Shown here in pieces: positions 3,752 to 57,180 of a stretch of DNA of 64,000 nt. The stretch is taken from the NCBI GenBank assembly GCA_023898465.1, contig CP060223.1, forward strand, positions 928,001 through 992,000, read 5' to 3'. This stretch comes from Candidatus Nomurabacteria bacterium. GTDB lineage: Bacteria; Patescibacteriota; Patescibacteriia; HK-STAS-PATE-3. A program made the position numbers and the translations under genes. Under the pieces are notes generated by a model. It had not been told where the DNA came from, ran no database searches, and saw only the letters and a program-made list of their open reading frames with translations. Position 1 is the stretch's first letter; each line of letters starts with the position of its first letter.

Positions 3752-3777
3752 TCCAATCACGTATTTGGACTTTTAGA

Positions 3778-10406: not shown

Positions 10407-12041
10407 TTACGGAGCAACTGCATAAATCTTAGCCTCCTTGTCTTCGTAGACCAGTGAGACCCCCTCTGTACCATCTACTAAACGATCCATAGCTACATGA
10501 TCTTTAGTAACAACTACGTACGATGCATGAAAAGTATCACGTAGAGTGGTACTCACCGTGCTCGGATCTGACTTCCCGGTGGTTAAATCAACCCAAGCCC
10601 AATAGCGATCTTCATCGTGGGCATACAAAAAGGTTGGATCTAAACCAGCAATATAGCGATGTGATGGATCATAGTAAAAAAGGAGTGGAAACTCATCCCA
10701 GTCACTATGTACGACAATCTCGTCTGATGGGGCATTTGCTTTTAACCAAGTGCCAACACCAGACAGGGTTGAGGCATCTTGCCCACCCGCTAGGTCGCGT
10801 CGCACATTTCGCAAGTCACGTACACCCACGCCAACCACTCCTATAACAACATAGGCGAGGATTATCACTGCGACCGTTTTTGAAAGGACGCTATGACGCC
10901 ACCCGGCCACAACATCTCGCAAAAGCGCTTTACCTGCCTTACCAGAGAGTGCGTCGCTGATGGAAAAAGCTCCAAACAACATACCAATCGGCACATAGTA
11001 TTCAACGTAGCGCTTGGACTTCAGGGTAAGCAGGAAAAAGAAAATGGTTAGCAAGAAGAGGGTCCAGGAGCGGACAGACTGCTTTCGTAATTGCAGAGCC
11101 ATACCGAATATCCCTAACACCACCACAATAGAAACAAAGATGGTGGTAGGAATAAGCTCACCGATGTGATACGGATACCACTCTCCGCCTACGCCAATGC
11201 TATGTTGCGCATTAATAATGCCAATCTTAAAAAGCTGGTATTCGTAAAATCGAATGTTGTGCGGGAAGCTAGGATTAAGCAATAGACCTGCCAGCATCCC
11301 ACCCCCAACCGCCAAACCTATGGTGATGTAAAGACGCCAAGAAGCTTCATGGTGTCGCCAACGATCATACTGCTCATGCAGACGAGTAAGGAGAGAACGA
11401 GAATCACTCTGATGGAGTATCCAATAACGGACTAAGCCCACCAGGCAAAACACCGCTGTACAAACAAGCAGCAGGGAAAATCCGCCGTATACCCAAACAA
11501 AAATCCATGAGTACACAAAAGCCCACTTTGCTCGGAAGTGAAACACCAACCATAAACCAGCCAAAAGAAGTGTCACTCCCAGAACAGGCGCTTTTGGTAA
11601 ACCCATCCGAAACATGAATGGATTCACAAACAAAAGCAACAAGGTAAATACAAATGCCCATCGCACTTGGAAGGAACGAAGGAGGCCATAGAACATGCCA
11701 GCCATCACTGCAGTGAGTAAAATAGTGGCGACTTTTATCCCGACCAGTGGATCAGCTATAGAAACAAACGGGATGAGAATAACGTGATAAAGAAAATGCT
11801 GATTAATGTAATTCTCACTCAGGGATGTAAAAGGCAGCCAGGGAAACTGCGTAAAAAAACCTTTGTCAGCTACCAGGGTTGCCATCCGAGCATGATAAAA
11901 AGAATCAGGATCAGCAAAAGCATCATGCAATTGCAAATACGATGCAATGACCAGGGCAATCATCATGATAAGCAGACCGGTCAGAAAGGGCGTCCGGCAA
12001 AAGATACGATAGATTTTATACCACCAAGCCTCCTTTTCCAT
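10407..12041 (-). CDS. ArnT/PMT-family-like (GT-C) membrane glycosyltransferase
   Basis: 544 aa and multi-TM. The first extracytoplasmic loop, DAFADPDSFYHARMATLVADKGFF, resembles the DExRYAE…SGDW motif of ArnT/PMT GT39/GT83 enzymes. It has a soluble C-terminal domain. Confidence 0.5.
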   Translation of the reverse strand: MEKEAWWYKIYRIFCRTPFLTGLLIMMIALVIASYLQLHDAFADPDSFYHARMATLVADKGFFTQFPWLPFTSLSENYINQHFLYHVILIPFVSIADPLVGIKVATILLTAVMAGMFYGLLRSFQVRWAFVFTLLLLFVNPFMFRMGLPKAPVLGVTLLLAGLWLVFHFRAKWAFVYSWIFVWVYGGFSLLLVCTAVFCLVGLVRYWILHQSDSRSLLTRLHEQYDRWRHHEASWRLYITIGLAVGGGMLAGLLLNPSFPHNIRFYEYQLFKIGIINAQHSIGVGGEWYPYHIGELIPTTIFVSIVVVLGIFGMALQLRKQSVRSWTLFLLTIFFFLLTLKSKRYVEYYVPIGMLFGAFSISDALSGKAGKALLRDVVAGWRHSVLSKTVAVIILAYVVIGVVGVGVRDLRNVRRDLAGGQDASTLSGVGTWLKANAPSDEIVVHSDWDEFPLLFYYDPSHRYIAGLDPTFLYAHDEDRYWAWVDLTTGKSDPSTVSTTLRDTFHASYVVVTKDHVAMDRLVDGTEGVSLVYEDKEAKIYAVAP

Positions 12042-12094
12042 ACGCTAAAGTATAGCATTCTCATGCCTACACGGCGAACTGCTGATTAGCGAAT

Positions 12095-13147
12095 TTACTT
12101 CAGCTGCGCTTTGAAATAATCCACCCAAGGAATCGGCGATGGATCTATGTCATGCTCCATAGCGAGCCAGAAGCTGAGATAGCCACTAAAGGTGAGGTGT
12201 AAAACTATCTCTTCTAAGCGCGACTGAGCAGAAACCTTCACATCATCAACGCTAAAGTGCTGTCGTTGAAAAACCTTTTTACTAATACCGTAACGTTTTT
12301 CATTTCGAGCATGTAAAAACTTTGAACGAAGCATGAGTACATGCAGGGCTACTTTAGGATGCGCTAAGCCCTCCATGAGGTGGTGATTTAATCCTGGGAT
12401 AGGGAAATGTAGCGCAAAATGCTTACTGTTTTCATGGAAGCGATTTCGATAGGCCAGGGCTACATTTTCTAAGTGCTCGCTCCCCACAATAAGCGGGATG
12501 CGAGTGCACAACTTCTTGGCTAACTGCAGAGTAGTATTTCGTTGTTGAGGCGCCTGCACTGACCATTGTTTACCAGCTCGTCGAGCCTTCTCTATTGCGC
12601 GATGTAATTCTGGAGTAGATACACGTAGCTGCCCAGCAGCCGCAAGTAGCCCCATAATACCAAAAAGCATGTATCCAGTACCCATGCGAGGTTGCTGGGA
12701 TGGATTATACCGTGCATCAAAAATATAGGCGGGAATTTTCCATTGCGTAGCCAACTTGGCCAATGTCCCACCCGAGGAAATAACCATGAGTTTGGCGCCA
12801 CGTTGTCGAGCCTGACGAAGCGCGCTCACACTTTCTTCCGTACCGCCTGAATAACTTGAGGCGATTACGAGAGTATCAGGACCAACATAGGCTGGAATAT
12901 CGTACTGCTCTATTACCTCAAAAGTCGCTTTTGATGAGGGACGCAAAAAATCCGCTGCGATCCGAGCTGGAAATGCAGAGCCACCCATACCAGCCACCAC
13001 AATTTTTTTCACTGCACGATAACTAGCAGGCACAGCTATGCGTGAGGATTCGTCCCAGGCTTGTGCAATCTGATCAGGAAAAGCATCGAGCGAACTTAAC
13101 ATTTGTTGCTTATCAAGTCTTTGGACTTTTTGTTGTAGTGTCATCAT
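12095..13147 (-). CDS. bifunctional phosphoglucose/phosphomannose isomerase (SIS domain, archaeal-type PGI/PMI)
   Basis: VVAGMGGSAFPARIAADF…LVIASSYSGGTEE…MVISSGG are tandem SIS-domain motifs characteristic of PGI/PMI. Confidence 0.7.
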   Translation of the reverse strand: MMTLQQKVQRLDKQQMLSSLDAFPDQIAQAWDESSRIAVPASYRAVKKIVVAGMGGSAFPARIAADFLRPSSKATFEVIEQYDIPAYVGPDTLVIASSYSGGTEESVSALRQARQRGAKLMVISSGGTLAKLATQWKIPAYIFDARYNPSQQPRMGTGYMLFGIMGLLAAAGQLRVSTPELHRAIEKARRAGKQWSVQAPQQRNTTLQLAKKLCTRIPLIVGSEHLENVALAYRNRFHENSKHFALHFPIPGLNHHLMEGLAHPKVALHVLMLRSKFLHARNEKRYGISKKVFQRQHFSVDDVKVSAQSRLEEIVLHLTFSGYLSFWLAMEHDIDPSPIPWVDYFKAQLK

Positions 13148-32458: not shown

Positions 32459-33556
32459 TTATTGCCGAATCGGCATAATAAGATAGGTGTAGGACTCTTT
32501 ATTCGTCGGACGAAATACTCCCGGTCCATCACTATCGGTTAACTCAATCTGCACCTCTTCACTACTCATACTTGCTAATCCATCAAGTAAGTAGCGGTAG
32601 TTAAATAAGATGCTTGTTCCTTCTCCGTCCACCTGTCCTTCGAGGTGGGTAGAGTGCTCACCAACTTGCGTATTGGCCGCCTCGATGGTGACGCCCTTTC
32701 CTGCCACAAAGGCTAGGGTAATATCATTAATCCCAGTTTTGCAAAAAAGACTTGCTGCTCGCACCTGTCGACTCAGCGCCTCTACGGAGAAGGTGGCAGT
32801 GGTAAGATGTTCTTTTGGAATAATCTCTTGGTATTCAGGATATTGACCTTCAATGAGACGAGAAACAAGCTCTATATCGCCAATACGGAAGAGTATCTGG
32901 TTCTCGCCTAATATAATACTCATTTCATTTTCCTCGGTATCTAATATCCGCACCACCTCTTGAAGAGCTCGACTTGGCACAATAACCGCTCGCGTGTCTC
33001 CACTTGCGTTAATGTTTATCTTTCGCTCGGCTAAACGATAGCTATCCGTAGCAGCCAGCACCATGTTGTTATTCTCGATTTTTACATAGATGCCGTTTAT
33101 CTCGGGTCGTGAATTATCATTTGCTGCAGCAAATAACACTTGAGTTAGAGCTTGGCGTAAATCGTTAGTGGCCGCTTTTGTTATGCTTTTTTCTTCCACG
33201 CTTGGGATGACTGGAAATTCATCAGCGGCAATTCCCTTCATGGTTGTAGTTGTTTCACCGGTGGTGATGTGTAAACCCTCTTCACGTAATTCAATATCGA
33301 TCCGTACATTCGATAAAAGATTCACAAAGTCGTGAAGAAGTCGACCCTGTATGGTATACGCGCCTGGTGTTTCTACTTTTGCTCGGACCATGCAAGTAAC
33401 ACCAATTTCAAGATTTGTTGCTGATAGACGTATGCCGGTTGACTCCGCGGTAAGAAGAATATTTCCTAAAATTGGTAAGGCTGCGTTCTTTCCTACAGCT
33501 CGTGACACAATGGTTAATCCACGGATAAGGTTTTCTTGTGTACAGGAGAATTTCAT
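32459..33556 (-). CDS. dnaN: DNA polymerase III beta sliding clamp
   Basis: MKFSCTQENLIRGL… with three-domain length and positioned after dnaA. Confidence 0.85.
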   Translation of the reverse strand: MKFSCTQENLIRGLTIVSRAVGKNAALPILGNILLTAESTGIRLSATNLEIGVTCMVRAKVETPGAYTIQGRLLHDFVNLLSNVRIDIELREEGLHITTGETTTTMKGIAADEFPVIPSVEEKSITKAATNDLRQALTQVLFAAANDNSRPEINGIYVKIENNNMVLAATDSYRLAERKININASGDTRAVIVPSRALQEVVRILDTEENEMSIILGENQILFRIGDIELVSRLIEGQYPEYQEIIPKEHLTTATFSVEALSRQVRAASLFCKTGINDITLAFVAGKGVTIEAANTQVGEHSTHLEGQVDGEGTSILFNYRYLLDGLASMSSEEVQIELTDSDGPGVFRPTNKESYTYLIMPIRQ

Positions 33557-33808
33557 AGTAGATATTTTATATAAAACAGGAAGTAGTAATAGTAAGGGCT
33601 GGGGAAATGTGGATGAATGTGAGAGGGGTAAGTTTTAGGTAAGTAATCCGGGCTTATTTTACTTTTCATTTTTTTCTCTCATGTGTATATCATCGGCATC
33701 CTTATGTGCACGGTGTGTGAGAGGAAAGGGGATGAAAAATGTCATGTACACTTATCCAGTTTTTGTGCGGATACCATCCCCAAAGATATCCCAATACTTA
33801 TCCGCAGC
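33557..33808. promoter_or_regulatory. oriC part 1: DnaA-box cluster plus AT-rich stretch between dnaA and dnaN
   Basis: tgtggatga (33608), ttatccag (33752), tgcggata (33765) and ttatccgca (33798) are 7-8/9 matches to TTATCCACA. The AT-rich tract is ttttacttttcatttttttctctc. Confidence 0.55.
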
Positions 33809-35191
33809 TTATCCTGAGCCGTAGAGACGCTGAAGAATCAAGCGCAGGTTTTCCTGAAGGCGCTCATCCTCACGCAGCTGACCAGAAATTTTTGTTACCG
33901 CATGCATAGCAGTCGTGTGATCCCGATTACCTAACTCATAACCAATACTCGGGAAAGAGCTTTGAAGCTCCTCACGCATAAGATACATAGCAATTTGTCG
34001 GGGGACTACCAATTCTTTCTTACGGCTCACCCCAAGGAGATCAGCGATTTCAAGCTCGTAAAAATCAGCCACTACTTCAATAACCTGCCGCGGAGTAACA
34101 CCACCGCGTTTTGTTGAGCGCGTAACCGAAGAAAGTAGCTCTTTTACTGTATCCATGGTAAGTGATTTACCGCTTAACTCTTGGTAAGCCACCACACGAT
34201 TGAGGGCGCCCTCTAGTTCACGAATATTACTTTGTACATTTGTGCCGATGTAATGCAAAATTTCAGAAGAAAGTAAAAGGTTTTTTTCTCGACACTTCAC
34301 ATCCAGGATAGCAATACGCGTTTCTAGGTCTGGCTGGGCAATATCCGCAATCATTCCCCACTCAAAACGAGAGACAAGACGGTTTTCTAGTGAAGGAATT
34401 GATTTTGGTGGACGATCAGAAGTAATAATAATTTGTTTATTCGCCTGATGGAGCGCATTAAAGGTATGAAAAAACTCTTCTTGAGTTCCTTCCTTACCTG
34501 CCAAGAACTGGATATCGTCTACCAAGAGCACATCAACGCCACGGTAGCGATTTTTAAACTCCTCACCGTTTCCCTTACTAATAGCGCGAATGAATTCATT
34601 AGTAAATTTTTCTGAGGAGACGTAGAGCACACGCTTCGAAGAGTCCTGGGCAAGCACCTGATGGCCAATTGCCTGCATAAGGTGCGTTTTACCTAAGCCA
34701 GCACCCCCATAAATAAACAAAGGGTTATAAATTAACCCAGGTCGTTCTGCTACTGCTACGCAGGCCGCTTTTGCGAGTTCATTGGATTTGCCGGTAATGA
34801 AGGTGCCAAAGGTGTAGCGAGGATTTAAGGTAGCGTTTTCTGGTATCTTAGCGGTGGACGGGGCATCACTCACCACGTTCTGCGCTACGGGCGTCTCAGC
34901 CACGGCTACTTTTTGTAGGTTTTGGGCAGCTGGGGCTTTGCTTGGTGATTCTACTTTATAAGAAACCTGCACCTGAGCAGATCCAAGTGCCGATTTTACA
35001 GCTTTAAGTATTGATTCGTGGTATTTGCTCTCCAACCAGGCCTTAGTAAATGTATTAGGAACCCCGATAACCACACTATTTTCATCTTGGGACGCAACAA
35101 AAGTGTTACTAAACCAAGTAGTGAAATTTGGTCGGCTAATAAGTAGTTCTAATTCGCCTAATACGGCCTGCCAAAGCTGTTCATTGGTCAT
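33809..35191 (-). CDS. dnaA: chromosomal replication initiator DnaA
   Basis: Walker A GGAGLGKTHL, the AAA+ sensor and a C-terminal DnaA-box binding domain (…TAMHAV…). Confidence 0.9.
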   Translation of the reverse strand: MTNEQLWQAVLGELELLISRPNFTTWFSNTFVASQDENSVVIGVPNTFTKAWLESKYHESILKAVKSALGSAQVQVSYKVESPSKAPAAQNLQKVAVAETPVAQNVVSDAPSTAKIPENATLNPRYTFGTFITGKSNELAKAACVAVAERPGLIYNPLFIYGGAGLGKTHLMQAIGHQVLAQDSSKRVLYVSSEKFTNEFIRAISKGNGEEFKNRYRGVDVLLVDDIQFLAGKEGTQEEFFHTFNALHQANKQIIITSDRPPKSIPSLENRLVSRFEWGMIADIAQPDLETRIAILDVKCREKNLLLSSEILHYIGTNVQSNIRELEGALNRVVAYQELSGKSLTMDTVKELLSSVTRSTKRGGVTPRQVIEVVADFYELEIADLLGVSRKKELVVPRQIAMYLMREELQSSFPSIGYELGNRDHTTAMHAVTKISGQLREDERLQENLRLILQRLYGSG

Positions 35192-37641: not shown

Positions 37642-38793
37642 ATGGAACTCTCGACCAAGGAGCAAGTTGTTGATGCGCTGCGTTCGCGTGAAAGCATCCT
37701 CATCGTATTGCCAAAAAATCCCAGCCCAGATGCCATAGCTTCTGGGGCGGCCCTGTCTACTATTTTGCGGGCCATGCAAAAAGAAATCCGGATTGTTTCG
37801 AGTGATTTTCAATTTCCTTCCTCACTAGGCTTTTTGCCTGCTCGGCCTGATATCCATACCGACCTGGACGCTGACCGTAAGCTGGTTATTAGTCTCGCTC
37901 TCAAGGAGACCAAACTAGGCGAGCTATCGTATGACGTGCAAGATGACATGTTGAAAATTTTTATTACCCCAAAGGGAAAAGGTTTCCATGAAAAGGATGT
38001 GAAGGCGTCATTAGGAGAATATAACTTTTCACTCATCATCACCCTCGACACACCATCCCTGCAAAGCCTGGGTCCGCTTTTTGAACAAAACGCCGATCTC
38101 TTTTATCAGGTTCCGATTGTAAACATTGATCATCATCCGACAAACGATTCCTTTGGGCAGATTAACTATGTTGATTTAGTAGCGACGTCGACCTCAGAAA
38201 TTGTGCTTGATCTTATTCAAGAGCTAAAACCTGATGTGTTAGATGACGCTATGGCAACAAATTTACTGACTGGAATTATCACAAAGACCCGATGCTTCCG
38301 TAGTCCAAGCGTTACCCCAAAAGCGCTCTCTGTCGCCTCTCATTTAATTGAGATGGGAGCAAAGCGAGAAGATATTGTGCGACATCTTTATCAAACACAT
38401 TCACTCACCGCTCTGAAACTATGGGGACGAGCCTTAGCACGATTAAAAGAGGCGCATCACGGACAGTTTGTCTGGACTATTTTGAATCGCCAGGACTTCC
38501 AAAAATCTGGAGCGGATGCCCGAGCCTTGCACGGAGTAATTGATGAGTTGATTGTAAACATGCCTCGCGCTCGAGTGATTCTAGTAGTCTATGAGGGGGA
38601 AGATGGTCAAATTCATGGTTTGGCCCAGAGCGATAAGCAAATTCGTAATCTTGCCTTGTTTAAAGACTTTCAACCAAGCGGCACAGACGAGTACGCTGAG
38701 TTGCGTTTCCCAGATGAGAGCCTTGAAATTGTGGAAGCAAAAGTAGCAGAGCGAGTCGAAGCATATTTTCGAACGCAAGGACTTCTCTCCTAA
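37642..38793 (+). CDS. nrnA: DHH/DHHA1 phosphoesterase (NrnA-like bifunctional oligoribonuclease/pAp phosphatase)
   Basis: NIDHHPTND (DHH motif), with upstream DxD motifs and a DHHA1-like C-terminus. Confidence 0.7.
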   Translation: MELSTKEQVVDALRSRESILIVLPKNPSPDAIASGAALSTILRAMQKEIRIVSSDFQFPSSLGFLPARPDIHTDLDADRKLVISLALKETKLGELSYDVQDDMLKIFITPKGKGFHEKDVKASLGEYNFSLIITLDTPSLQSLGPLFEQNADLFYQVPIVNIDHHPTNDSFGQINYVDLVATSTSEIVLDLIQELKPDVLDDAMATNLLTGIITKTRCFRSPSVTPKALSVASHLIEMGAKREDIVRHLYQTHSLTALKLWGRALARLKEAHHGQFVWTILNRQDFQKSGADARALHGVIDELIVNMPRARVILVVYEGEDGQIHGLAQSDKQIRNLALFKDFQPSGTDEYAELRFPDESLEIVEAKVAERVEAYFRTQGLLS

Positions 38794-38851
38794 GCAGTAG
38801 CCCCCAGGTTCCGTTCTCCTCCTGAAGCGTGTATACTTGAGAGGCTGTATT

Positions 38852-40561
38852 ATGGTAGCTACATCCTCATCTTCCAACACTAGTTCATCTCACTCCATCC
38901 CGATTGCTCCAAAAGAAGTCGAGCAGCGTTTTGATAGAAAAATGGAGCAAATGAAGCAGCGAGAATTAGAGCGTCAGGTGCGCGATGAGGCCATTCGGCG
39001 AGGTTTGGGATATACCACCTTAGTAGGAGTGCCGATTGACCAAGACAGCCTCAAGGCCATACCCCGCGAAACTGCGCTGCAAAGGAAAATGATTTGCTTC
39101 AACCGTAGTCGCGAAGAAATGCGTGTAGCCGTACTTGATCCGAATCAAGAGGGTTTGGATGAGTTGCTGCAAAAATTAAGTGAGGAACAAAACCTGGCGA
39201 TCGGTCTCTACCTTGTTTCGCCAAAAAGTATTCAGGCAGCCTTAACGCAGTATGATACTTTGCCGCAAATTAAACCCCAAGTGAGTGGCGTGCAAGTAAC
39301 AGAAAAAGATTTGAATCGCTTCCGCAAAGAACCAACCCTACTCAAAGACCTGGAGGATCAACTCAATCGCATTCCAGTTACTGATGTGTTGAGTTTATTA
39401 CTCGCTAGTGCAACACAATCCCGAGCAACAGATATTCATATTGAGGCTGAGGAAAATGACGTGAAGATTCGCTTCCGTATTGATGGCATCCTACATACCG
39501 TTGCTACCTTACCAAAAGAGTCATGGAAAAAACTTATTAGCCGTATCAAGATTTTGGCCGGCCTGAAGCTAAACATTGAAGACAAGCCACAGGATGGTCG
39601 CATTACTTTACGACTCAGCGACGATGAAGTTGATATCCGTGTTTCCACCGTACCTACTGCCTATGGCGAGAGCGTGGCCCTTCGTTTACTTCTCGCTTCA
39701 GAGGCTGGACTTACCTTAGACGACCTGGGATTGCGTGGACAAGCCTTCGAGCAGTTGAAGCGAGAAATTAGTCGACCAAATGGCATGATAATTACCACTG
39801 GTCCAACCGGGTCCGGTAAAACCACGACGCTCTATGCTTTCTTAAAGCAGTTAAATCGACCAGAAACAAAAATCCTTACCCTGGAGGATCCGATTGAATA
39901 TAAGCTGGAAGGCATTAATCAGAGCCAAGTGAATCCCGAGGAAGGGTACAATTTTGTGCGCGGATTAAAGCACGCCCTCCGACAAGACCCAGACATTGTT
40001 ATGGTCGGTGAAATTCGTGATTTGGAAACTGCCGAGATTGCTATACAAGCGACACTGACTGGTCACTTAGTGATAAGCACGCTGCATACCAATAATGCGG
40101 CCGGTGCAGTGCCGCGTTTCTTATCGCTTGGCGTGAAGCCATTCTTACTCGCTCCCGCCCTGAATGCAGTTATTGGTCAGCGTCTGGTACGGCGCTTGTG
40201 TCAGGAATGTAAAAAGCCAGCTGAGTTGGATGGTGAGACAAGCCAGCGGATTAAAGAGTATTTAGAAAAAATTCCCGAGGATTCAAAGTTCCGACCAGAC
40301 ATGTCAAAACCGCTTACCTTCTACATCGGCGGCGGCTGTGAAGTCTGCGGCGGCATTGGCTATCAGGGTCGTGTTGGTATCTACGAAGTGATGACCATGA
40401 ACCAAGAGTTGGAAAAGCTAGTACTGGCCGGAAACACGTCTGAATATGATATTGAGGCTAATGCGGTAAAGCACGGCATGATTACCATGGTGCAGGACGG
40501 TTTACTAAAAGCACTCGACGGCATTACTTCAGTAGACGAAGTCTTCCGCGTCGCGGAATAA
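38852..40561 (+). CDS. pilB: type IV pilus / type II secretion assembly ATPase (PilB/GspE family)
   Basis: GPTGSGKTTTLYA (Walker A), DPIE…, a CxxC…CxxC tetracysteine and an N-terminal GSPII_E_N-like domain. SD GAGAGG precedes ATG 38852. Confidence 0.85.
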   Translation: MVATSSSSNTSSSHSIPIAPKEVEQRFDRKMEQMKQRELERQVRDEAIRRGLGYTTLVGVPIDQDSLKAIPRETALQRKMICFNRSREEMRVAVLDPNQEGLDELLQKLSEEQNLAIGLYLVSPKSIQAALTQYDTLPQIKPQVSGVQVTEKDLNRFRKEPTLLKDLEDQLNRIPVTDVLSLLLASATQSRATDIHIEAEENDVKIRFRIDGILHTVATLPKESWKKLISRIKILAGLKLNIEDKPQDGRITLRLSDDEVDIRVSTVPTAYGESVALRLLLASEAGLTLDDLGLRGQAFEQLKREISRPNGMIITTGPTGSGKTTTLYAFLKQLNRPETKILTLEDPIEYKLEGINQSQVNPEEGYNFVRGLKHALRQDPDIVMVGEIRDLETAEIAIQATLTGHLVISTLHTNNAAGAVPRFLSLGVKPFLLAPALNAVIGQRLVRRLCQECKKPAELDGETSQRIKEYLEKIPEDSKFRPDMSKPLTFYIGGGCEVCGGIGYQGRVGIYEVMTMNQELEKLVLAGNTSEYDIEANAVKHGMITMVQDGLLKALDGITSVDEVFRVAE

Positions 40562-49528: not shown

Positions 49529-51655
49529 ATGTTTTTACGCGCATGTATAGTATTGCTCTTTGTCTTTACGCAAAGCGTTCCCTTCTTTCCTGTGACACAG
49601 GCAATTGAAATCCCAACTGTTGTGATAAATGAGCTTATGTGGATGGGTTCATCCGCTTCCTCGGCTGACGAATGGATAGAGCTGCGTAATACTAGCGATC
49701 AACAGATAGATATTTCTGGATGGAAAATGACCAAGAAGAGCGGTGAAGACAACGCGCTCATGTTAACTATTCCAGAAAATCAATTCATTGCCCCACGGGC
49801 ATATTACCTCATTGCGAACTATGCTGATGATGCGACAAATTCACATTTAGCCATAGCACCTGATTTGGTTGAGACCGACGTCGCATTAGTAAACTCGGCC
49901 TTGCAGATTGGGCTTTATACTTCCCAAGATGAACTTATTGACAGTGCGGATGACGGAGTGGGCAAGCCCTTGGCAGGTGAGTACACATCAGGTGAAATAT
50001 GGAAATCAATGGAGCGAGTACGTGAGCCAAGTGATGGAACTAGGCCGGAGGATTGGAAGACCTCAAGCGCTCAAGTGAATTTTGATGCCGCTTCCCCAGA
50101 GTATGGTACGCCAGGGGCAGAGAATAGTAATACTGCGCCAGCGGCAAATGCTGGAGAAGATTTCTCTATCCAGGTCGGTGAAACAGCGACATTTGACGCT
50201 TCACTTTCTGAAGATGCTGACCATGACACACTTAGTTACTCATGGGATTTTGACGACGGCGGAGTTGCGAGTGGGATAACTCCTACGCACGTGTATCAAC
50301 ATGAAGGGGAATACCACGTAGTTCTGATTGTTTCCGATGGGATGCTTACATCGAGTGATGAGGTGCTGGTGAGTGTAAGCTTAGAATCAGTCTTACCAAC
50401 ACCAGAGACTCAAGAGGATAATCCAGGGGAAGAGGAGTCTAGCGATCCTGAATATATGCGGGGTAATGTGCTGCTCAATGAAGTCTTCCCTAATCCAAGT
50501 GGGCGAGATCAAGAAGCAGAGTTTATCGAGCTCTATAATGCGGATGACAAAGCGGTTTCGCTGAGCGGCTGGAAAGTAACCAATGATAAAAGCTCATATC
50601 ACTTTGATGATCAAGTAATTGCACCTGGAGCCTTTCTCTCCATATCATATTCGACGAGTAAAGTCTTGCTGCGCAATAGCGGCGGTGTAGTTCGACTAGT
50701 AAACCCCTTCAATGAAATAGTGAGCGGGTTAGAGTACGGCGTGGCCGAAGAAGCAATGAGCTTTGCTCGAGTGAATGATACGACACATTGGGAATGGACA
50801 AGCCTGCCCACCCCCGGGAGTGAAAATGAGATTGAGCAAGATATTTCTTCTTCAAACACGGAAGTAGAAGGAGATAGCAACGCAATAATTTTAGAAAAGA
50901 CAAACGAGACTAATACAAGCCTTCCAAAAAATATTAAGGTGGCTGAAATTGCCGGACTTGATCCAAAAACCCTTGTGCAAGTTGAAGGTGTGGTGACCGC
51001 CGCGCCAGGCATGTTCTCCGTTTCGTCATTTTGGCTGCAGGATGAGAGTGGGGCAGCCGAGGTTTCATCAACAAATAAACTATTCCCAGAGCTAGAGCTT
51101 GGCAATCTCGTGCGCGTGATTGGTACGGTGTCGAGTGCTGGAGAGGGCTTACGCATAAACCAGCGCAAAGATGAAATTGAAGTAATTGGTGTGAGCGTTG
51201 TAGCTCCTGAGGAATTGCAAAGCGATGATCTTAATGAGGCACTCATTGGTCATCTCGTGAGCGTCCAGGGACAGATAACAAAATCAGCCAAGACAAAACT
51301 CACCTTGCGTGATGAGCAGGGTGAATTGGCCGTCGTCGCCAAGAAAGGCACTGAGCTTGATCTCAGTAGTTTCAGCGTTGATGAGCCCGTGCAGATTCTC
51401 GGCATACTTGGATGGACAAGCGCTGGGCCACAAATTTGGCCAAGGACTATTGAAGATATTCAAATTGCCGGAGAGGTTTTAGGCGAAGCAACAAGCTTAG
51501 AAGCTCAAACTCCACTTACTGACTCGACAGCCATCGTGAATGATGATCGAAAAGTATTTCCCACCTGGTTAGTTATGGTAATCATCGGTGTCATGTTAAG
51601 TCTGGGAGCGTGGTGGTACTGGAAACATCGCGTCGATACCACTTCCCATGTCTAA
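49529..51655 (+). CDS. membrane-anchored surface protein: LTD - PKD - LTD - tandem OB-fold (ExeM/NucH-like DNA-binding) - C-terminal TM
   Basis: - LTD motifs: VVINELMWMGSS…DEWIELRNTSDQQIDISGWKM and VLLNEVFPNPSGRDQEAEFIELYNADDKAVSLSGWKV.
- PKD: YSWDFDDGG…THVYQHEGEYHVVLIVSDG.
- OB-like: VQVEGVVTAAPGMFSVSSFWLQDESG and GHLVSVQGQITKSAK…LRDEQGELAVV.
- C-terminal anchor: WLVMVIIGVMLSLGAWWYW.
- No nuclease (EEP) domain was recognised. Confidence 0.55.
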   Translation: MFLRACIVLLFVFTQSVPFFPVTQAIEIPTVVINELMWMGSSASSADEWIELRNTSDQQIDISGWKMTKKSGEDNALMLTIPENQFIAPRAYYLIANYADDATNSHLAIAPDLVETDVALVNSALQIGLYTSQDELIDSADDGVGKPLAGEYTSGEIWKSMERVREPSDGTRPEDWKTSSAQVNFDAASPEYGTPGAENSNTAPAANAGEDFSIQVGETATFDASLSEDADHDTLSYSWDFDDGGVASGITPTHVYQHEGEYHVVLIVSDGMLTSSDEVLVSVSLESVLPTPETQEDNPGEEESSDPEYMRGNVLLNEVFPNPSGRDQEAEFIELYNADDKAVSLSGWKVTNDKSSYHFDDQVIAPGAFLSISYSTSKVLLRNSGGVVRLVNPFNEIVSGLEYGVAEEAMSFARVNDTTHWEWTSLPTPGSENEIEQDISSSNTEVEGDSNAIILEKTNETNTSLPKNIKVAEIAGLDPKTLVQVEGVVTAAPGMFSVSSFWLQDESGAAEVSSTNKLFPELELGNLVRVIGTVSSAGEGLRINQRKDEIEVIGVSVVAPEELQSDDLNEALIGHLVSVQGQITKSAKTKLTLRDEQGELAVVAKKGTELDLSSFSVDEPVQILGILGWTSAGPQIWPRTIEDIQIAGEVLGEATSLEAQTPLTDSTAIVNDDRKVFPTWLVMVIIGVMLSLGAWWYWKHRVDTTSHV

Positions 51656-51661
51656 AAATAC

Positions 51662-51690
51662 TTGCCGTAAAGGAAAAAATATGCTATACT
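51662..51690 (+). promoter_or_regulatory. sigma70-type promoter TTGCCG-17-TATACT upstream of beta-helix protein gene
   Basis: cttgccgtaaaggaaaaaatatgctatact read directly. Confidence 0.45.
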
Positions 51691-51702
51691 TCCCTTACAA
51701 AA

Positions 51703-53529
51703 ATGCAAAAGAAAAAAATAGACAAGCGATCATTGTCATGGCAGCTTCTGACACTACTAGGCGTTTTTCTTTTTGTTGTTGTAGCGCAAAAGAGCTTAGC
51801 TGATACGGCGTACTATGTTGATCAAAACAATGTAAGTTGTTCAGATGCGGGACCTGGCTCACCTTCTGTTCCTTTCTGTAGTTTAGTGCCCACACAGGGA
51901 GTAGTGGCTCCAGGAGATACGGTATATATAGCTGACGGGCGCTATGGTGATCCCCTCAGCTTTACTGTTTCAGGGACTGAGGGTAATCCTATTCGCTACA
52001 TCGCTCAAGGCGAGAACGTTGTCCTTGGTGTTTTTGAAGACTTGGTAGATGAAAATTTTACCAAAACTCCCGGGTACACCAATGTGTATGAAATAGCTTT
52101 ACCCATAAGCGATCCTGACCATCGTTTGTTCCAAACCTATTTCCCCGACATCCTGGTAGACGATCCGGACAATGATTCATACTTTACCATGAAAGATGCG
52201 GATGGTCCTTTAGGACTCACTGAGACGGATGATTTGACCCTTGTCGATGAAAACGAGGGGTCCTGGATGATTAGTGGTGAGACTATTTATGCGCATGCTT
52301 ATGGCAGCCGTGTTCCAAGCACTGCATCAACAGATTTTGTGTATACCTACGATAAATGGCAATTAGGAATTGGGGCATCAATTTCCTATCTTGTGTTTGA
52401 CGGTTTCCAATTTCACTACAACGGAGAGTATAACTTTGTCGTAAACGGCACGCACAATACATTTTATAATATTAAAAAAACAAGTGGCTTTGAAATACGA
52501 GGAAGTGATAACTACGCTGAAGGGATAACCGCGAGCCACGAAATAACTCGGAATGCTCCTAGTGGGAGCTTTTACAGTGGCGCAAGTGGTTACGGTTTGT
52601 TTATCCGAGGTACAAATAACACCTTAAAAGATATTCACGTATTTCATAATTGGAATAATATTGGAGTGAATGGAAGCAACATCACTATTCAAAGCGGCGA
52701 GATTCATGGCTCACCAAATCATTGTTTTCAACCTCAACACAATGATGGATTGACCATACAAAATCTAAAATCTTGGAATTGCCAAGATGGCTATGGATAT
52801 ATCTCGGGTGATGTTACTAATGCAGTTTTTGAGAATGGGACCGTGCAGTCGAGTATTCTTTTTCAAGACCTAATTGTTGCTGCACATTATCCAAATAGCA
52901 ATCTTACTTTTCGGAATATGCTATTTAATGACTGTAAGATTATTACCGGAGGATATGGCGTTAACGAGTGTAGCTATGAAAGCACAGTCACAATAGAAAA
53001 CTCGATTTTTTTCTGTGATAATATTTCGAATTTTGAGATTCAGCATTGCGTTGCACCAGGAAATCTTGAGACCTATTCCTCGATCGCTGCATATCAGGCA
53101 AATTGTGGAGACAACTGTATGACCTTAAATAACGTTCAGTTGATCGATACAAACCATACTAACGTTATTCAGGGTGGTAAGTGGCCAGGTGAAACACCGC
53201 TCTGGGATATTCATATTCCAAATGAAAGTAGTGTAGCCTTTGATGCCGGATCTTCATTAGCTAGCTCAAGTATTGACTACGAAGGCGACACTCGACCACA
53301 AGGGCTTAGATACGACATTGGCGCTGACGAATTACCAGTTGTAGATTCAGGAGGAGAAGAATGTACACCTGATTGGCAATGTGACGCTTGGGCATCGTGC
53401 AGCAATGGCAATCAAACGCGAACTTGCCATGATAGTAATAGCTGTGGCACTGAGAGTGGACGACCGAGTCAGAGCAGATCCTGCGACTCCTATGTACCGG
53501 GCAGAATAACTAACTTACGCGTCGAGTAA
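51703..53529 (+). CDS. secreted right-handed parallel beta-helix (pectate-lyase-fold) protein with C-terminal Cys-rich module
   Basis: - Signal/TM: LLTLLGVFLFVVVA.
- VPFCSLVPTQGVVAPGDTVYIADGRYGD is a beta-helix N-terminal cap-like segment, followed by Asn/Gly-rich repeats.
- C-terminal module: CTPDWQCDAWASCSNGNQTRTCHDSNSCGTESGRPSQSRSCD. Confidence 0.5.
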   Translation: MQKKKIDKRSLSWQLLTLLGVFLFVVVAQKSLADTAYYVDQNNVSCSDAGPGSPSVPFCSLVPTQGVVAPGDTVYIADGRYGDPLSFTVSGTEGNPIRYIAQGENVVLGVFEDLVDENFTKTPGYTNVYEIALPISDPDHRLFQTYFPDILVDDPDNDSYFTMKDADGPLGLTETDDLTLVDENEGSWMISGETIYAHAYGSRVPSTASTDFVYTYDKWQLGIGASISYLVFDGFQFHYNGEYNFVVNGTHNTFYNIKKTSGFEIRGSDNYAEGITASHEITRNAPSGSFYSGASGYGLFIRGTNNTLKDIHVFHNWNNIGVNGSNITIQSGEIHGSPNHCFQPQHNDGLTIQNLKSWNCQDGYGYISGDVTNAVFENGTVQSSILFQDLIVAAHYPNSNLTFRNMLFNDCKIITGGYGVNECSYESTVTIENSIFFCDNISNFEIQHCVAPGNLETYSSIAAYQANCGDNCMTLNNVQLIDTNHTNVIQGGKWPGETPLWDIHIPNESSVAFDAGSSLASSSIDYEGDTRPQGLRYDIGADELPVVDSGGEECTPDWQCDAWASCSNGNQTRTCHDSNSCGTESGRPSQSRSCDSYVPGRITNLRVE

Positions 53530-53530
53530 T

Positions 53531-55024
53531 ATGCCCCAAACCGAACAAATCGTTGCGACAAAGACATGGTTGCAAGTGTCTATCAGTAGCACTCTAGCCT
53601 CTTTTATACTCATTTCTTTAACCGGTTTGAGTATGGGGCTTATTTCTTTTCAATCAGATATTTTTCCCATTTTCCAACAGCAAGAAGCGACGAGTCAATA
53701 CGATAATAGCAATTCAGCAAAATTAATATGGACGGCGCCAGGTGATGATGGATATACCGGACAAGCGAGCGGCTATGATATTCGCTATGCTCAGACTCCC
53801 ATTACATCCGCAAGCTGGAGTTCAGCCACTCAGGTAGCCAACACACTGCAACCAAAAGTTGCTGGGGCATCTGAATCGTTTCGAGTGACCGGCCTCCTGT
53901 CCGCCAAAACCTACTATTTTGCAGTGAGGGCGTATGATGAGGTGGGTAACTACGGAGAGATTTCGAATGTACCAAGTATAACGACAGCCTGCTATGTTTC
54001 GTGGTCCTGCGATGAGTGGTCAGCTTGTGTGGACGGTCAGCAGGTGAGGACTTGTAGTGATACAAATAGCTGTGCTTCAGATGAGGGTAGACCAGAGGAA
54101 AGCCGAGCGTGCGGAGCGGGGGGTCCATCACCTGAGCCGATTATTGTGGGTACACATACTGGATATCCGCCACACCTACGGGTGCTAGATAGCAACGGCG
54201 GTCTCATGAGTCAGTTTTATGCCTACGCAGAAAATTTCCGTAACGGGGTAAACTTTTCTTTTGGTGATGTTGATGGTGATGGCAAAAAAGATATCGTCGT
54301 AGGAACCATTGGAAAATCAGCCGCGCATATCCGAATCTTTCGCCAGGATGGAAGCCTCCTTTCGCAATTTTTTGCCTACCCAGCGCAGTGGCGCATAGGA
54401 GTGAGTGTGAGTACCGGTGATCTCGATGGCGACGGAAAGGATGAGATTATTGTTTTACCGAATACTCGCTCGCCTGCCCATGTGCGAATTTTTTCTTACA
54501 CCGGACAATTACAAAATCAATTTTATGTTTTCCCTTCCCAGTGGAGACTGGAATTAAATCTAGAGAGTGGAGATGTAAACGGAGATGGGAAAGACGAGAT
54601 TGTTGTTTCTACTACTGAGGGTTATACGCCGCATGTCCGTATTTTTTCTGGTACTGGTAATTTAGTCGGACAATTTTTTGCCTATGATTTAGGATATCGT
54701 GGTGGGGTCCCGATCGCCACCGGTGACACAAATGGGGACGGGAAGGATGAAATAATTACTGGCACAGGGCCAGGCTATCGACCGCATGTCCGTATACTGG
54801 ATTTAGATGGATCAGTCGTTGGTCAGTTTAATGCCTATGATCCAAATTATCGTGGCGGACTAACACTCTCCTCGACTGATGTGGATGGTGATGGGGTTGA
54901 TGAGGTTATCGTCGGTACTATGCCAGGCTATCCTGCTCATGTGCGAGCGCTTACCAATACCGGCGACCTCGTTAGCCAGTTTTATGCCTATCCGCCTGAA
55001 TGGAAGATTGGAGTGAAGTTGTAA
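53531..55024 (+). CDS. membrane-anchored protein: FN3 domain - Cys-rich module - seven FG-GAP/VCBS repeats (integrin-alpha-type beta-propeller)
   Basis: - FN3: AKLIWTAPGDDGYTGQASGYDIRY…YYFAVRAYDEVGN.
- Cys module: CYVSWSCDEWSACVDGQQVRTCSDTNSCASDEGRPEESRAC.
- Seven repeats of the form GDVDGDGKKDIVVGT…HVRIF. Confidence 0.6.
   Translation: MPQTEQIVATKTWLQVSISSTLASFILISLTGLSMGLISFQSDIFPIFQQQEATSQYDNSNSAKLIWTAPGDDGYTGQASGYDIRYAQTPITSASWSSATQVANTLQPKVAGASESFRVTGLLSAKTYYFAVRAYDEVGNYGEISNVPSITTACYVSWSCDEWSACVDGQQVRTCSDTNSCASDEGRPEESRACGAGGPSPEPIIVGTHTGYPPHLRVLDSNGGLMSQFYAYAENFRNGVNFSFGDVDGDGKKDIVVGTIGKSAAHIRIFRQDGSLLSQFFAYPAQWRIGVSVSTGDLDGDGKDEIIVLPNTRSPAHVRIFSYTGQLQNQFYVFPSQWRLELNLESGDVNGDGKDEIVVSTTEGYTPHVRIFSGTGNLVGQFFAYDLGYRGGVPIATGDTNGDGKDEIITGTGPGYRPHVRILDLDGSVVGQFNAYDPNYRGGLTLSSTDVDGDGVDEVIVGTMPGYPAHVRALTNTGDLVSQFYAYPPEWKIGVKL
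54130..55021 (+). repeat. seven tandem ~130-bp coding repeats (FG-GAP blades)
   Basis: Recurring …GY(P/T)PH(L/V)R(V/I)…G…QF(Y/F)AY…GD(V/L)(D/N)GDGKDEI(V/I)V… units. Confidence 0.7.
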
Positions 55025-55055
55025 TCTAGTTGCAAAGAAAAGCCAGTCTGTATAG

Positions 55056-55211
55056 CTACAGACCGGCTCGGTGGGCGCGCCTTTGCAGGAGGAGATAAGG
55101 AACCAGGAAGAAAAGCGTGCCAAAGGTGAGACCAATGAGCATGCCCACACCAGTGAGCAAGAGGCCACAAAGGCCAAAAACGGCACAGGTCAACAATTTC
55201 AGAATTTTCAT
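55056..55211 (-). CDS. small hydrophobic peptide (51 aa, two TM-like segments); below track cutoff
   Basis: Minus-strand SD GGGAGGG, then 4 nt, then ATG. Translation: MKILKLLTCAVFGLCGLLLTGVGMLIGLTFGTLFFLVPYLLLQRRAHRAGL. Confidence 0.25.
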   Translation of the reverse strand: MKILKLLTCAVFGLCGLLLTGVGMLIGLTFGTLFFLVPYLLLQRRAHRAGL

Positions 55212-55279
55212 GTTTCCCTCCCAGGAGCGCCGCTAGTATAGTACGGCTTATTTGGTATGTAAAATCCCGCACAAGAGCG

Positions 55280-55288
55280 TGCTACAAT
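55280..55288 (+). promoter_or_regulatory. extended -10 element TGCTACAAT, 6 nt before ATG 55295 (leaderless-type)
   Basis: It is identical to the motif at 19736. Confidence 0.4.
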
Positions 55289-55294
55289 ATACTT

Positions 55295-56314
55295 ATGCGC
55301 GCAAAATACTTCTTAGGAGCCCTTATTCTCACCTTCGGGATTGTTGCTTTAGCGTGGTACGTGGGTGATCCTGTCCAATCGGTTGGAGCGGAGGATAAAC
55401 AGACCAAGGAAGCTATTTCACGAGGCTTGGATTTTTTAGCACAAAGCCATCATCCTTATACTTTTGATGATGCGTATTTGCAGTATCTCTACCCAGACGA
55501 GAATCTCTCGTGTCCTTTACCTAATTGTCAGCTTAGTTATCGTCTGCTTGATGCATACTTCGCCGTTGCCATGCTTCGTGATCGATTAAGTGCAAAAGAA
55601 AAGCAGAGCATCCAAGACGTGCTTGAGGAACAAGAGGCAGTTTTTGAAATCCTCTTGCCTACATGGCGCACTGCACCGATCGAAGGCACCTTACGAAGTG
55701 AAGCGGCAAGTAGCGAGAGTGTAGCCTTGGATACCTATTGTCTTCTCGGCTATCTCACTAAAGATAAAGCAATGGCAGAGCACGCATTGGAATATCTCTC
55801 ACCATCAGGCGAGTGGTTTGCAGCTGATCATTTTACTAGTGATCAGTGGCGGAATATTGCTGATGAAACATGGTGCATTCGTTTGCTTGCTGTAACCGAA
55901 ACCTATCCGGAGCAGTTTGCCAACATGGTTGAAACAAAAACTATTGAGGTTCGCGGTTTTCTCCAATCGCAAAAACCGGTCGCTGAAAAAATAGCCGCAG
56001 TCTATCATGTATTGCTTATGATACAAGAGCCGGGAATTACCCAATCAGCCGAACAAATTCCCGTTTTACAAGAGACAGCTGCCGCACTTATTGCGAGCGC
56101 GAGCACACAACTTGATGCGGTGACAATGGCAAACAGTCTTGAAATGTTAACCCTAAGTCACTTTTCCACTGACTCGTATGTGAGTGGCTTACGCGAAGGT
56201 CTCTTGCGATCGCAAAGCACGGACGGTGCGTGGCGTTACGGCGATGACAATCAGTATGCCGTGTTTGCTACCCTTCGCAGTTTATTAGGATTAACCAGTG
56301 ATCGAGTGGAATGA
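55295..56314 (+). CDS. secreted/anchored prenyltransferase-squalene-oxidase-repeat (alpha/alpha-toroid) protein
   Basis: N-terminal TM helix ALILTFGIVALAWYV. The C-terminal repeat DGAWRYGDDNQYAVFATLRSLLGL matches the terpenoid-cyclase/prenyltransferase repeat signature. Confidence 0.45.
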   Translation: MRAKYFLGALILTFGIVALAWYVGDPVQSVGAEDKQTKEAISRGLDFLAQSHHPYTFDDAYLQYLYPDENLSCPLPNCQLSYRLLDAYFAVAMLRDRLSAKEKQSIQDVLEEQEAVFEILLPTWRTAPIEGTLRSEAASSESVALDTYCLLGYLTKDKAMAEHALEYLSPSGEWFAADHFTSDQWRNIADETWCIRLLAVTETYPEQFANMVETKTIEVRGFLQSQKPVAEKIAAVYHVLLMIQEPGITQSAEQIPVLQETAAALIASASTQLDAVTMANSLEMLTLSHFSTDSYVSGLREGLLRSQSTDGAWRYGDDNQYAVFATLRSLLGLTSDRVE

Positions 56315-57180
56315 ATATGAAAAAGATATTTTTACTCGATGTATTTTTTCTCCTAGCACTGCAGTATATTTTTTTTCATGGCCTAGGGGCAACGTATCGC
56401 TGGGTAAACTCCAGCCTCGTACATATTCCCATCTTCCTGGCTTGGTTTAATATACAAATGCTCTTTCTCTGTCTTGCTACACTGGTTTTGGTAATGGTGG
56501 GACTTGCTCTACGCGGAAAATCTTTTGTTTGGTTAGGATTCGAGGCACTTCCTAAAAATACAGTATCAAGTATAGGGTTGTTTATTGCATTGAGTTTTCC
56601 CATTGCGCTCCTTGGTCGATTAATCGTATCTGATTTTGATGCATGGTATGCCAATGGAGCTGGCCTGCTGAGCTGGGCAGGTGTTGGCGCCTTTGTCGTA
56701 ACCTTAGTTTTTTCAGTGTTGAAAGAGGAATTATTGCAACGCTTCATGCAAAGGATGCTCATGGAGCACTTGAGCAACTTGAGTATTGCGATTGTTATGG
56801 CAAGCAGCTTTGCCTTGGCGCACTATTTTACTCCCGTGGCCTATGGCGTCAGCTCAGTGGTGAGTGTAGCGTTTATTGCTTTCCTTCTGGCTGTGCTTTA
56901 TCTCCGTACGAAAAATATACTTGTCACATTCTTTTTTCATTTTTGCTTTAATCTCATTATCACTATTCAGATTAGTTTGCACGCCCGGGGCGATGGCGTA
57001 GGAGAATTCCTGCTTTGGAGTCTTTGGGGATTAGCCTTTCTCTGGACCCTTAAGCCAGCCTGGAAAGCATTACGTGAAAGTTTATCTTTTTCCTCAAGCG
57101 ATCTCCAGCCAAAAACACTTGTATTTCTTACACTCTTTGGATTTCTCCTCCCTCTGCTCTACACCTTTCTGCTGAACTAA
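56311..57180 (+). CDS. CPBP-family intramembrane glutamic endopeptidase (CAAX protease/Abi-like)
   Basis: Motif 1 EELLQR, motif 2 FALAH, motif 3 HFCFN. Eight TM helices. Confidence 0.7.
   Translation: MNMKKIFLLDVFFLLALQYIFFHGLGATYRWVNSSLVHIPIFLAWFNIQMLFLCLATLVLVMVGLALRGKSFVWLGFEALPKNTVSSIGLFIALSFPIALLGRLIVSDFDAWYANGAGLLSWAGVGAFVVTLVFSVLKEELLQRFMQRMLMEHLSNLSIAIVMASSFALAHYFTPVAYGVSSVVSVAFIAFLLAVLYLRTKNILVTFFFHFCFNLIITIQISLHARGDGVGEFLLWSLWGLAFLWTLKPAWKALRESLSFSSSDLQPKTLVFLTLFGFLLPLLYTFLLN

Follow-up and report, generated by a model that had tools for sequence, protein, structure and literature searches.

A conserved toroid-CPBP protease gene pair in a probable mosaic of cell-surface genes from a Candidatus Nomurabacteria genome

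Results

The five genes considered here, g1 to g5, lie on the plus strand of a 64,000-nucleotide stretch of DNA, referred to as the window, that belongs to a 1,082,586-bp contig of a metagenome-assembled Candidatus Nomurabacteria genome from the candidate phyla radiation (CPR; Patescibacteria). They encode, in order, an acidic surface protein with lamin tail domains (LTDs), a right-handed beta-helix protein, a protein with a fibronectin type III (FN3) domain and FG-GAP repeats, an (alpha/alpha)6 toroid protein, and a CPBP intramembrane protease (Table 1), and all five products are extracytoplasmic or membrane proteins according to Pfam matches and a transmembrane (TM) scan, as an earlier note on this DNA had proposed. 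That note, whose observation holds in part, also described the five genes as consecutive; each open reading frame (ORF) has the boundaries it gave and matches an independent gene call, but a small minus-strand ORF intervenes between g3 and g4. This interruption and the number of repeats in g3 are the small corrections with which its domain calls stand.

Comparison with related DNA indicates that g4-g5 is a conserved and, by prediction, translationally coupled unit of the locus. About 30 loci containing a g4 relative were collected (numbered with the prefix L), and all of their ORFs were searched with iterated profiles of g1 to g5. A CPBP gene lies directly 3' of the toroid gene in 21 of the 23 loci with enough sequence downstream of the latter; the exceptions are L020, where three genes are inserted between the two, and L019, where an RHS-type cassette stands in place of the CPBP gene. 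The stop codon of g4 overlaps the start codon of g5 in the sequence ATGA, and a 4-bp overlap between the toroid and CPBP genes is also present in L003 to L006 and L010. The genes beside the pair vary and include GroES/GroEL, ComM, cytidylate kinase, and an archaeal exosome operon. Several loci carry archaeal markers, namely, SBDS-Rrp4-Rrp41-Rrp42 in L020, PTH2 and Rpr2 in L021, diphthamide synthase in L011, and L15e/DUF655 in L032, so the pair is common to CPR bacteria and archaea; at least one of its archaeal loci is labelled Nanoarchaeota.

Two features of the surroundings of the pair were recorded in passing. The cassette on the archaeal contig L019 (positions 7138 to 12858) consists of genes for an RHS/YD-type protein with a DUF2380 C terminus and an SpvB/TcdB/FG-GAP protein, a toxin cassette accompanying a toroid without a CPBP partner. 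In CPR loci flanked by ComM, a minus-strand gene convergent with the CPBP gene is located just 3' of it (L004, 2277 to 3548; L009, 11913 to 13259; L014, 2972 to 3736); the L004 gene encodes a LysM-M23 peptidase according to Pfam, and the L009 and L014 proteins have a near-identical C-terminal end.

The product of g5 matches the Pfam family of Rce1-like CPBP proteins (PF02517; 37.8 bits against a cutoff of 22.4; E value, 2.3e-9), has about eight or nine hydrophobic segments in the TM scan, and contains the three catalytic motifs previously ascribed to it. These motifs, EExxxR, FxxxH, and HxxxN/D, are retained in all 22 partner CPBPs, as is the subfamily loop GRLxxPxFDxWY, and their conservation argues for an intact catalytic site in g5. 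The score of g5 against the curated MrtJ model NF033192 was 19.6 bits, below the cutoff of 75.

The g4 protein comprises a single N-terminal TM anchor followed by an extracytoplasmic (alpha/alpha)6 toroid, as judged by the TM scan and the fold comparison. It has no match in Pfam or NCBIfam, the thresholds of the SQHop_cyclase and Prenyltrans models were not reached, and the family profile of g4 extends to squalene-hopene cyclase only through the last QxxDGxW repeat; the description of g4 as a prenyltransferase/cyclase-like alpha/alpha-toroid therefore applies at the level of the fold only. Its nearest structural relatives are terpene cyclases, class II enzymes being nearest, and glycoside hydrolases. 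In comparison with monodomain class II terpene cyclases and the SQHop_cyclase/Prenyltrans toroids (MstE 6sbb, 8paj, 6ij1, and 8zg0), to which it is 10 to 14% identical, g4 lacks a Pfam match and a detectable DxDD motif, has a charged and polar rather than a mainly aromatic pocket, and carries its domain tethered to the membrane outside the cytoplasm. Eleven residues are invariant in 28 toroid sequences (D59, Y61, R83, D86, D146, R186, D190, E191, W193, H238, and W313) and are kept even in the most distant members of the family; this set of polar and aromatic residues, which includes the D190-E191 pair on helix 181-201, points to an active site or to a pocket that binds specifically. With about 115 clusters among 1.84 billion representative proteins, the toroid family is small, and its members are nearly always N-terminally anchored or lipobox bearing: an N-terminal hydrophobic segment was found in 69 of 80 full-length members.

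Members of this family are linked to proteases and to secreted proteins in other ways. The distant toroid relatives P0109, P0111 (L033, 211 to 2184), and P0114 have lipoprotein-type signals and a fused C-terminal domain with the sequence HEMGHxFGFADEY, which gave a weak match to an NCBIfam M6 metalloprotease model (E value, 0.002 to 0.003) and no match in Pfam or PDB sequence searches. This fusion branch lacks both C149 and C194 of g4, a joint loss more in keeping with a disulfide than with a function in catalysis. No toroid-CPBP fusion protein was found; long members of the family carry either the HExxH domain or a second toroid. Directly 5' of the toroid gene, the archaeal loci L018, L021, and L023 have a gene for a large, Cys-rich protein whose signal is type-IV-pilin-like, and in high-GC bacterial loci L030/L031, where the neighboring gene overlaps the toroid gene, and L034 the neighbor is a large secreted protein. 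At the C terminus of each of these neighbors, a PF11617 Cys-rich motif precedes G[SG]SP[IV]F, which lies 5 to 17 residues before the stop codon, and a beta-helix protein encoded 8.5 kb from the toroid gene of L011 ends in GGSPVF without the PF11617 motif. Among ORFs of at least 100 amino acids in all of the collected DNA, SP[IV]F occurs nine times, and seven of these occurrences are the C-terminal sites listed in Table 1. The archaeal tags have a Cys 2 to 3 residues from the end (RCGIG, RCGI, and YCGG), and the bacterial tags of L030 and L034 have no terminal Cys. The combination of G[SG]SP[IV]F and the Cys-rich motif may be an undescribed C-terminal processing tag; we found no paper on this tag or on the toroid-CPBP pair. 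The earlier suggestion that the CPBP protease sits beside its substrate gains indirect support from the archaeal order of tagged secreted protein, toroid, and CPBP in a row, but processing of g1 to g3 by g5 is unsupported, and the g1 tail has no invariant Cys.

Table 1. Positions of genes, domains, and motifs in the window and of C-terminal tag sites in related loci
Sequence	Feature	Positions	Strand	Remarks
Window	g1	49529-51655	+	708 amino acids; ORF matches independent gene call
Window	g1 LTD 1	49613-49948	+	Pfam
Window	g1 PKD	50129-50377	+	Pfam
Window	g1 LTD 2	about 50504-50830	+	Pfam
Window	g1 two OB folds	50933-51466	+	Pfam
Window	g1 TM segment	51554-51610	+	TM scan; basic tail follows
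Window	g2	51703-53529	+	608 amino acids; ORF matches independent gene call
Window	g2 choice-of-anchor Q domain	53212-53331	+	
Window	g2 six-Cys module	53362-53484	+	41 amino acids
Window	g3	53531-55024	+	497 amino acids; ORF matches independent gene call
Window	g3 FN3	53705-53968	+	Pfam
Window	g3 six-Cys module	53990-54112	+	
Window	g3 FG-GAP/VCBS repeats	about 54155-55021	+	5 full units and 1 partial unit
Window	Small hydrophobic ORF	55056-55211	-	51 amino acids; between g3 and g4
Window	g4	55295-56314	+	339 amino acids; ORF matches independent gene call
Window	g4 motif YRLLDAYF	55538-55561	+	
Window	g4 motif ALDTYC	55724-55741	+	
Window	g4 motif WRNIADETWC	55847-55876	+	
Window	g4 motif QSTDGAW	56213-56233	+	
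Window	g5	56311-57180	+	289 amino acids; ORF matches independent gene call
Window	g5 motif EELLQR	56725-56742	+	Residues 139-144
Window	g5 motif FALAH	56809-56823	+	Residues 167-171
Window	g5 motif HFCFN	56938-56952	+	Residues 210-214
L018	G[SG]SP[IV]F site	1138-1149		
L021	G[SG]SP[IV]F site	1985-1996		
L023	G[SG]SP[IV]F site	5846-5857		
L011	G[SG]SP[IV]F site	12101-12112	-	
L030	G[SG]SP[IV]F site	3757-3768		
L031	G[SG]SP[IV]F site	3577-3588		
L034	G[SG]SP[IV]F site	1138-1149	-	

The profile search also bears on the proposal that the five genes are one conserved unit, which it did not sustain: no homolog of g2 or g3 was detected in any of the related loci, and homologs of g2 were found in unrelated gene contexts. 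Scattering of the genes in relatives, which the note itself had named as grounds for refutation, is thus what g2 and g3 show. A g1 gene is located upstream of the pair only in L003, L005, L007, and L008, directly so in L003, L005, and L008, and other CPR and archaeal loci have the toroid-CPBP pair without g1. L003, L007, and L008 also keep TsaD upstream and PolA downstream, with PolA proteins that are 63 to 68% identical; L005 is a 4.1-kb contig in which only the start of PolA is visible. The adjacency of g1 is thus confined to a lineage that has also retained TsaD and PolA, and we therefore regard it as ordinary lineage synteny without functional weight. The slot between g1 and g4 is variable in content: it contains g2-g3 in the window, almost nothing in L003, L005, and L008, and a gene for an IS200-like Y1 transposase of the REP-associated type (8451 to 8948) together with a membrane ORF in L007. 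An ORF resembling this transposase is found upstream of g1 in L008 (6886 to 7404), which gives the slot the look of a hot spot for insertions. GC content is lowest over g2-g3 (0.428, against 0.47 to 0.52 in the flanks), and no flanking DNA repeats were found around this insert.

The 51-residue minus-strand ORF, together with a terminator-like hairpin at 55040 to 55069, separates g1-g3 from g4-g5. The same ORF was called in an independent assembly, the NCBI locus tags skip one number between g3 and g4, and small hydrophobic minus-strand ORFs occupy the matching position in L007 (9570 to 9788) and L008 (9664 to 9915); the predicted product has a weak ATP-synt_I-like match (E value, 0.0019). The stretch can accordingly be divided, from gene content and synteny, into three putative units: g1; g2-g3, a genome-specific insert; and g4-g5, the only widely conserved part.

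The domain architecture of g1 was confirmed by Pfam and the TM scan. An N-terminal signal peptide is followed by two LTDs (E value, 7.5e-32), a PKD domain (9.5e-23), and two oligonucleotide/oligosaccharide-binding (OB) folds, the latter matched by the tRNA_anti-codon family with an E value of 8.8e-9 for the whole protein and, in two stretches, 6.6e-11 for the excised region; a C-terminal TM segment at residues 676 to 694 precedes the sequence KHR. The five g1 orthologs used for comparison were taken from the collected loci. DUF5689 covers the OB region in four of them, and their alignment shows a C-terminal TM segment and a basic tail without a conserved Cys. ExeM and Xds nucleases are composed of a signal peptide, an LTD, a double OB region, and an EEP nuclease domain (PMC6085458, PMC6746945), and the likeness of g1 to this layout, drawn earlier, is borne out: g1 has in common with ExeM, NucH, and Xds the signal peptide, the LTD, a YhcR-like double OB region, and a membrane-targeting C-terminal end (PMC6085458, PMC6746945), whereas it differs in having a second LTD and a PKD domain, in being strongly acidic, and in lacking the EEP domain. 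Neither EEP nor any other nuclease family was found in g1 with Pfam or NCBIfam, the NCBIfam ExeM model scored 20 against a cutoff of 1300, and a search for homologs of the OB region retrieved nothing beyond a fragment of g1. The net charge is about -72 for the ectodomain of g1 and about -12 for its OB pair, and that of the OB pair ranges from -5 to -12 across the orthologs, which argues against unspecific DNA binding. On the available sequences, g1 is best described as a lineage-conserved, highly acidic, putatively tail-anchored surface protein similar to the noncatalytic front end of ExeM/Xds nucleases. An analogy in which g1, g4, and g5 would correspond to lamin (LTD), farnesyltransferase (toroid), and Rce1 was considered and rejected on the grounds that g1 lacks a Cys at its C terminus, that the toroid lies outside the cell, and that the adjacency of g1 is lineage limited.

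The g2 protein is a secreted or N-terminally anchored right-handed beta-helix with the pectin-lyase fold; the predicted model, of moderate confidence (pLDDT, 64), agrees with the beta-helix fold assigned previously, and a Pel9A-like beta-helix family recurs among the homologs of g2. It is probably a polysaccharide depolymerase or an adhesin. The likeness to pectin-lyase-fold polysaccharide lyases, hydrolases, and phage depolymerases is at the level of the fold, and g2 differs from them in its additional C-terminal six-Cys module and tail. One g2 homolog, P0147 (979 amino acids), is encoded within a long co-directional run of genes without Pfam matches (L029, 1 to 18689) that may represent the structural genes of a phage or prophage; this would suit a depolymerase or tailspike role for beta-helix proteins of the g2 type.

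The g3 protein has the N-terminal TM anchor, the FN3 domain (E value, 8.8e-7), and the FG-GAP propeller repeats (3.4e-23) reported earlier, but not the seven blades: the 51-residue (153-nucleotide) repeat unit occurs five times in full and once in part (about 5.6 repeats), with five DxDGDG motifs. A 41-residue module with the pattern C..W.C..WS.C..G.Q.R.C.D.N.C....GRP....R.C, without a Pfam match, is common to g2 and g3 at about 48% identity and is also found in P0143 and P0148, with a recorded position at 3878 to 3949 of L028; from its appearance we take it to resemble a thrombospondin type 1 repeat. Directly after the module, g2, P0143, and P0148 end in P..[IV]T[ND]L.[VA]., a tail that is conserved and reads PGRITNLRVE in g2 (C terminus, 53485 to 53529) and that resembles the initial strand of an FN3 domain. 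The FN3 domain of g3 (N terminus and FN3, 53531 to 53968) matches the Pfam fn3 profile from position 12 on only, so that the g2 tail might complement the g3 domain with a strand or else serve as a sorting tag. The idea that g2 and g3 are one recently split gene was rejected, as P0143 and P0148 share both the end point and the tail of g2. The TM scan detected no C-terminal TM segment in g2 or g3.

Discussion

To our knowledge, no function is known for most CPBP (CAAX-protease-like) proteins of bacteria and archaea, and in the few solved cases the protein acts with a dedicated partner. A toroid-CPBP pair that is strictly coupled and present in two cross-domain groups of genome-reduced episymbionts would represent a new class of partner. 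On balance, and with modest confidence, we favor the explanation that the stretch is a mosaic of three independent units in which g4-g5 is a two-component envelope-protein processing module. From the domain identities, the synteny pattern, the conservation of catalytic motifs, and the association with proteases, we infer a complex, a client, and an order of events: g4 and g5 would form a complex in the membrane, the polar central pocket of the toroid, lined by the invariant Asp, Glu, Arg, His, Tyr, and Trp residues, would recognize or modify a tag or moiety carried by an envelope protein that is secreted or tethered to the membrane, and the CPBP partner would then cleave that protein. Such a module would be built like SagB-SpdC, the peptidoglycan release complex of Staphylococcus aureus (10.1101/2020.05.21.109470), and, more loosely, like the lipoprotein N-acylation pair LnsA-LnsB (PMC7387801), in that a single-pass, N-terminally anchored extracytoplasmic protein is combined with a polytopic CPBP/Rce1-fold protein. 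It differs in that the partner is an (alpha/alpha)6 toroid rather than a GH73 glucosaminidase or an NlpC/P60-type protein, in that the genes are adjacent and overlapping, and in that the pair extends to archaea; the complex of g4 and g5 is a predicted one. The fusions of toroid and putative metalloprotease and the tagged neighbors independently tie the toroid to proteases and to secreted clients and provide concrete candidates for the study of surface-protein maturation.

Several observations weigh against this interpretation. No client was found in the window, where position alone makes candidates of g1 and of g2, the latter with its conserved C-terminal module, and the GSSP(I/V)F tag was found neither in the window, g1, g2, and g3 included, nor in any CPR locus. 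A divergent toroid in L034 has no CPBP gene downstream, the M6 assignment of the fused HExxH domain is a motif-level match, and the nearest structural relatives of the toroid do not include peptide-binding proteins. The complex between g4 and g5 is a prediction drawn by analogy, and conservation of catalytic residues is no proof of proteolysis: the known activity of SpdC is noncatalytic even though it retains such a residue (10.1101/2020.05.21.109470).

In another reading, no protein is cleaved. The toroid would be a glycoside hydrolase- or lyase-like enzyme whose target is the head group of an envelope precursor linked to polyprenyl-(pyro)phosphate, and the CPBP protein would only position the toroid and hold the lipid tail. 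As in SagB-SpdC, an extracellular enzyme with an N-terminal anchor would accompany a polytopic CPBP protein, and the invariant Asp/Glu/Arg/His/Tyr/Trp set looks like a sugar or phosphate pocket. Polyprenyl-linked carriers are present in bacteria and archaea alike and suit the cross-domain distribution of the pair. We nevertheless consider this reading unlikely, given the strict conservation of the three protease motifs in 22 partners, the fusion of the toroid to an HExxH domain in distant relatives, and the tagged secreted proteins beside the toroid, which point to a protein client; furthermore, peptidoglycan is excluded as the substrate by the presence of the pair in archaea.

A bolder version of the processing module, which we advance as a speculation and judge quite unlikely, is that toroid-CPBP is the core of an undescribed protein-sorting or maturation system common to ultra-small CPR bacteria and DPANN-type archaea, in which the extracytoplasmic toroid, with its prenyltransferase/cyclase-like fold, would recognize and chemically modify secreted proteins at a short C-terminal tag (the Cys-rich motif plus GSSP(I/V)F in some lineages) and the Rce1-like protease would remove the tail. 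If true, this would be an outward-facing prokaryotic analogue of CAAX processing and would supply the missing modifying enzyme postulated for CPBP-type sorting. Among the closest known systems are those of the myxosortase-type enzymes (MrtX, MrtC, MrtJ, MrtS, and MrtA), in which, as in the archaeal and high-GC relatives of the pair, an Rce1-family glutamic intramembrane protease is encoded near secreted proteins with a short, conserved C-terminal tag. In contrast to g5, those enzymes have no dedicated toroid partner, and the tag described here has no TM segment, Arg cluster, or invariant Cys. The CPBP sorting signal is a tripartite C terminus composed of an invariant-Cys motif, a TM segment, and an Arg cluster (10.1101/2023.06.07.544157), an arrangement that is absent from g1 to g3, as the g1 orthologs have no conserved Cys and g2 and g3 have no C-terminal TM segment.

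A stricter CAAX-like scheme, in which the toroid attaches a lipid or another group to a client, near its C terminus and at the outer side of the membrane, before the Rce1-like CPBP protease removes the C-terminal tail, has in its favor that a toroid of the prenyltransferase/terpene cyclase fold group is coupled to an Rce1-family protease, that the archaeal tags have a Cys near the end, and that the analysis of CPBP sorting by Haft predicts an unidentified modifying enzyme acting before cleavage (10.1101/2023.06.07.544157). We think it very unlikely: neither a DxDD motif nor a prenyltransferase zinc site has been demonstrated in g4, the joint loss of C149 and C194 hints at a disulfide, the pools of prenyl diphosphate are remote from the toroid, which is extracellular, the tags of the bacterial loci L030 and L034 end without Cys, and g1, g2, and g3 have no such tag.

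The earlier note had envisaged all five genes as a single surface apparatus for the capture of extracellular DNA or nucleotides or for host attachment, with the CPBP protease maturing g1 to g3. The extracytoplasmic or membrane location of all five products, the LTD and double-OB layout that g1 has in common with ExeM/Xds (PMC6085458), the position of g1 directly 5' of g4-g5 in L003, L005, and L008, and the resemblance of its C-terminal TM segment and basic tail to a sorting signal make this an attractive proposal. Against it stand the absence of g2 and g3 from every related locus searched, their position in a variable slot, the restriction of g1 adjacency to the clade that also keeps TsaD and PolA, with the pair occurring elsewhere without g1, the opposite-strand gene that breaks the cluster, and the lack in the g1 tail of the conserved Cys of known CPBP sorting signals. 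The architecture of g1 fits DNA capture, but this role is weakened by the acidity of the protein and its OB region and by the absence of a nuclease or DNA uptake gene from the cluster. We therefore give the single apparatus little credence; our analysis corrects the unsupported picture of a DNA-scavenging organelle, and the part of the locus worth pursuing is the toroid-CPBP pair. A pairing of g5 as a bacteriocin immunity or processing protein of the Abi type with g4 as a LanC-like peptide-modifying toroid is barely credible, for although CPBP/Abi proteins act as bacteriocin immunity factors, no precursor peptide, transporter, or LanB/LanM gene lies nearby, g4 has no conserved Cys-Cys-His zinc site and is extracytoplasmic, the pair is situated among housekeeping genes in many lineages, and PADLOC returned no match to a defense family in the window, so the defense reading was dropped.

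Other features of the window

In NCBI, g1 is USN53463.1 (lamin tail domain-containing protein), g3 is USN53465.1, g5 is USN53468.1, and g4 is named hypothetical protein H6760_04910. Housekeeping genes flank g1-g5, with TsaD and a DUF218 gene upstream and, starting 14 bp 3' of g5, PolA followed by holA. An Rfam scan of the window found no RNA family, and the counts of promoters and terminators in the region did not exceed those in shuffled sequence. The window holds DnaA/DnaN (32459 to 35191) and is therefore near the replication origin, and a PilB-like ATPase is encoded at 38837 to 40561. A tRNA-Met predicted by ARAGORN (38578 to 38662) falls within the 3' part of a DHH-family ORF (37642 to 38793), the real end of which is probably earlier, unless it is the tRNA call that needs checking.

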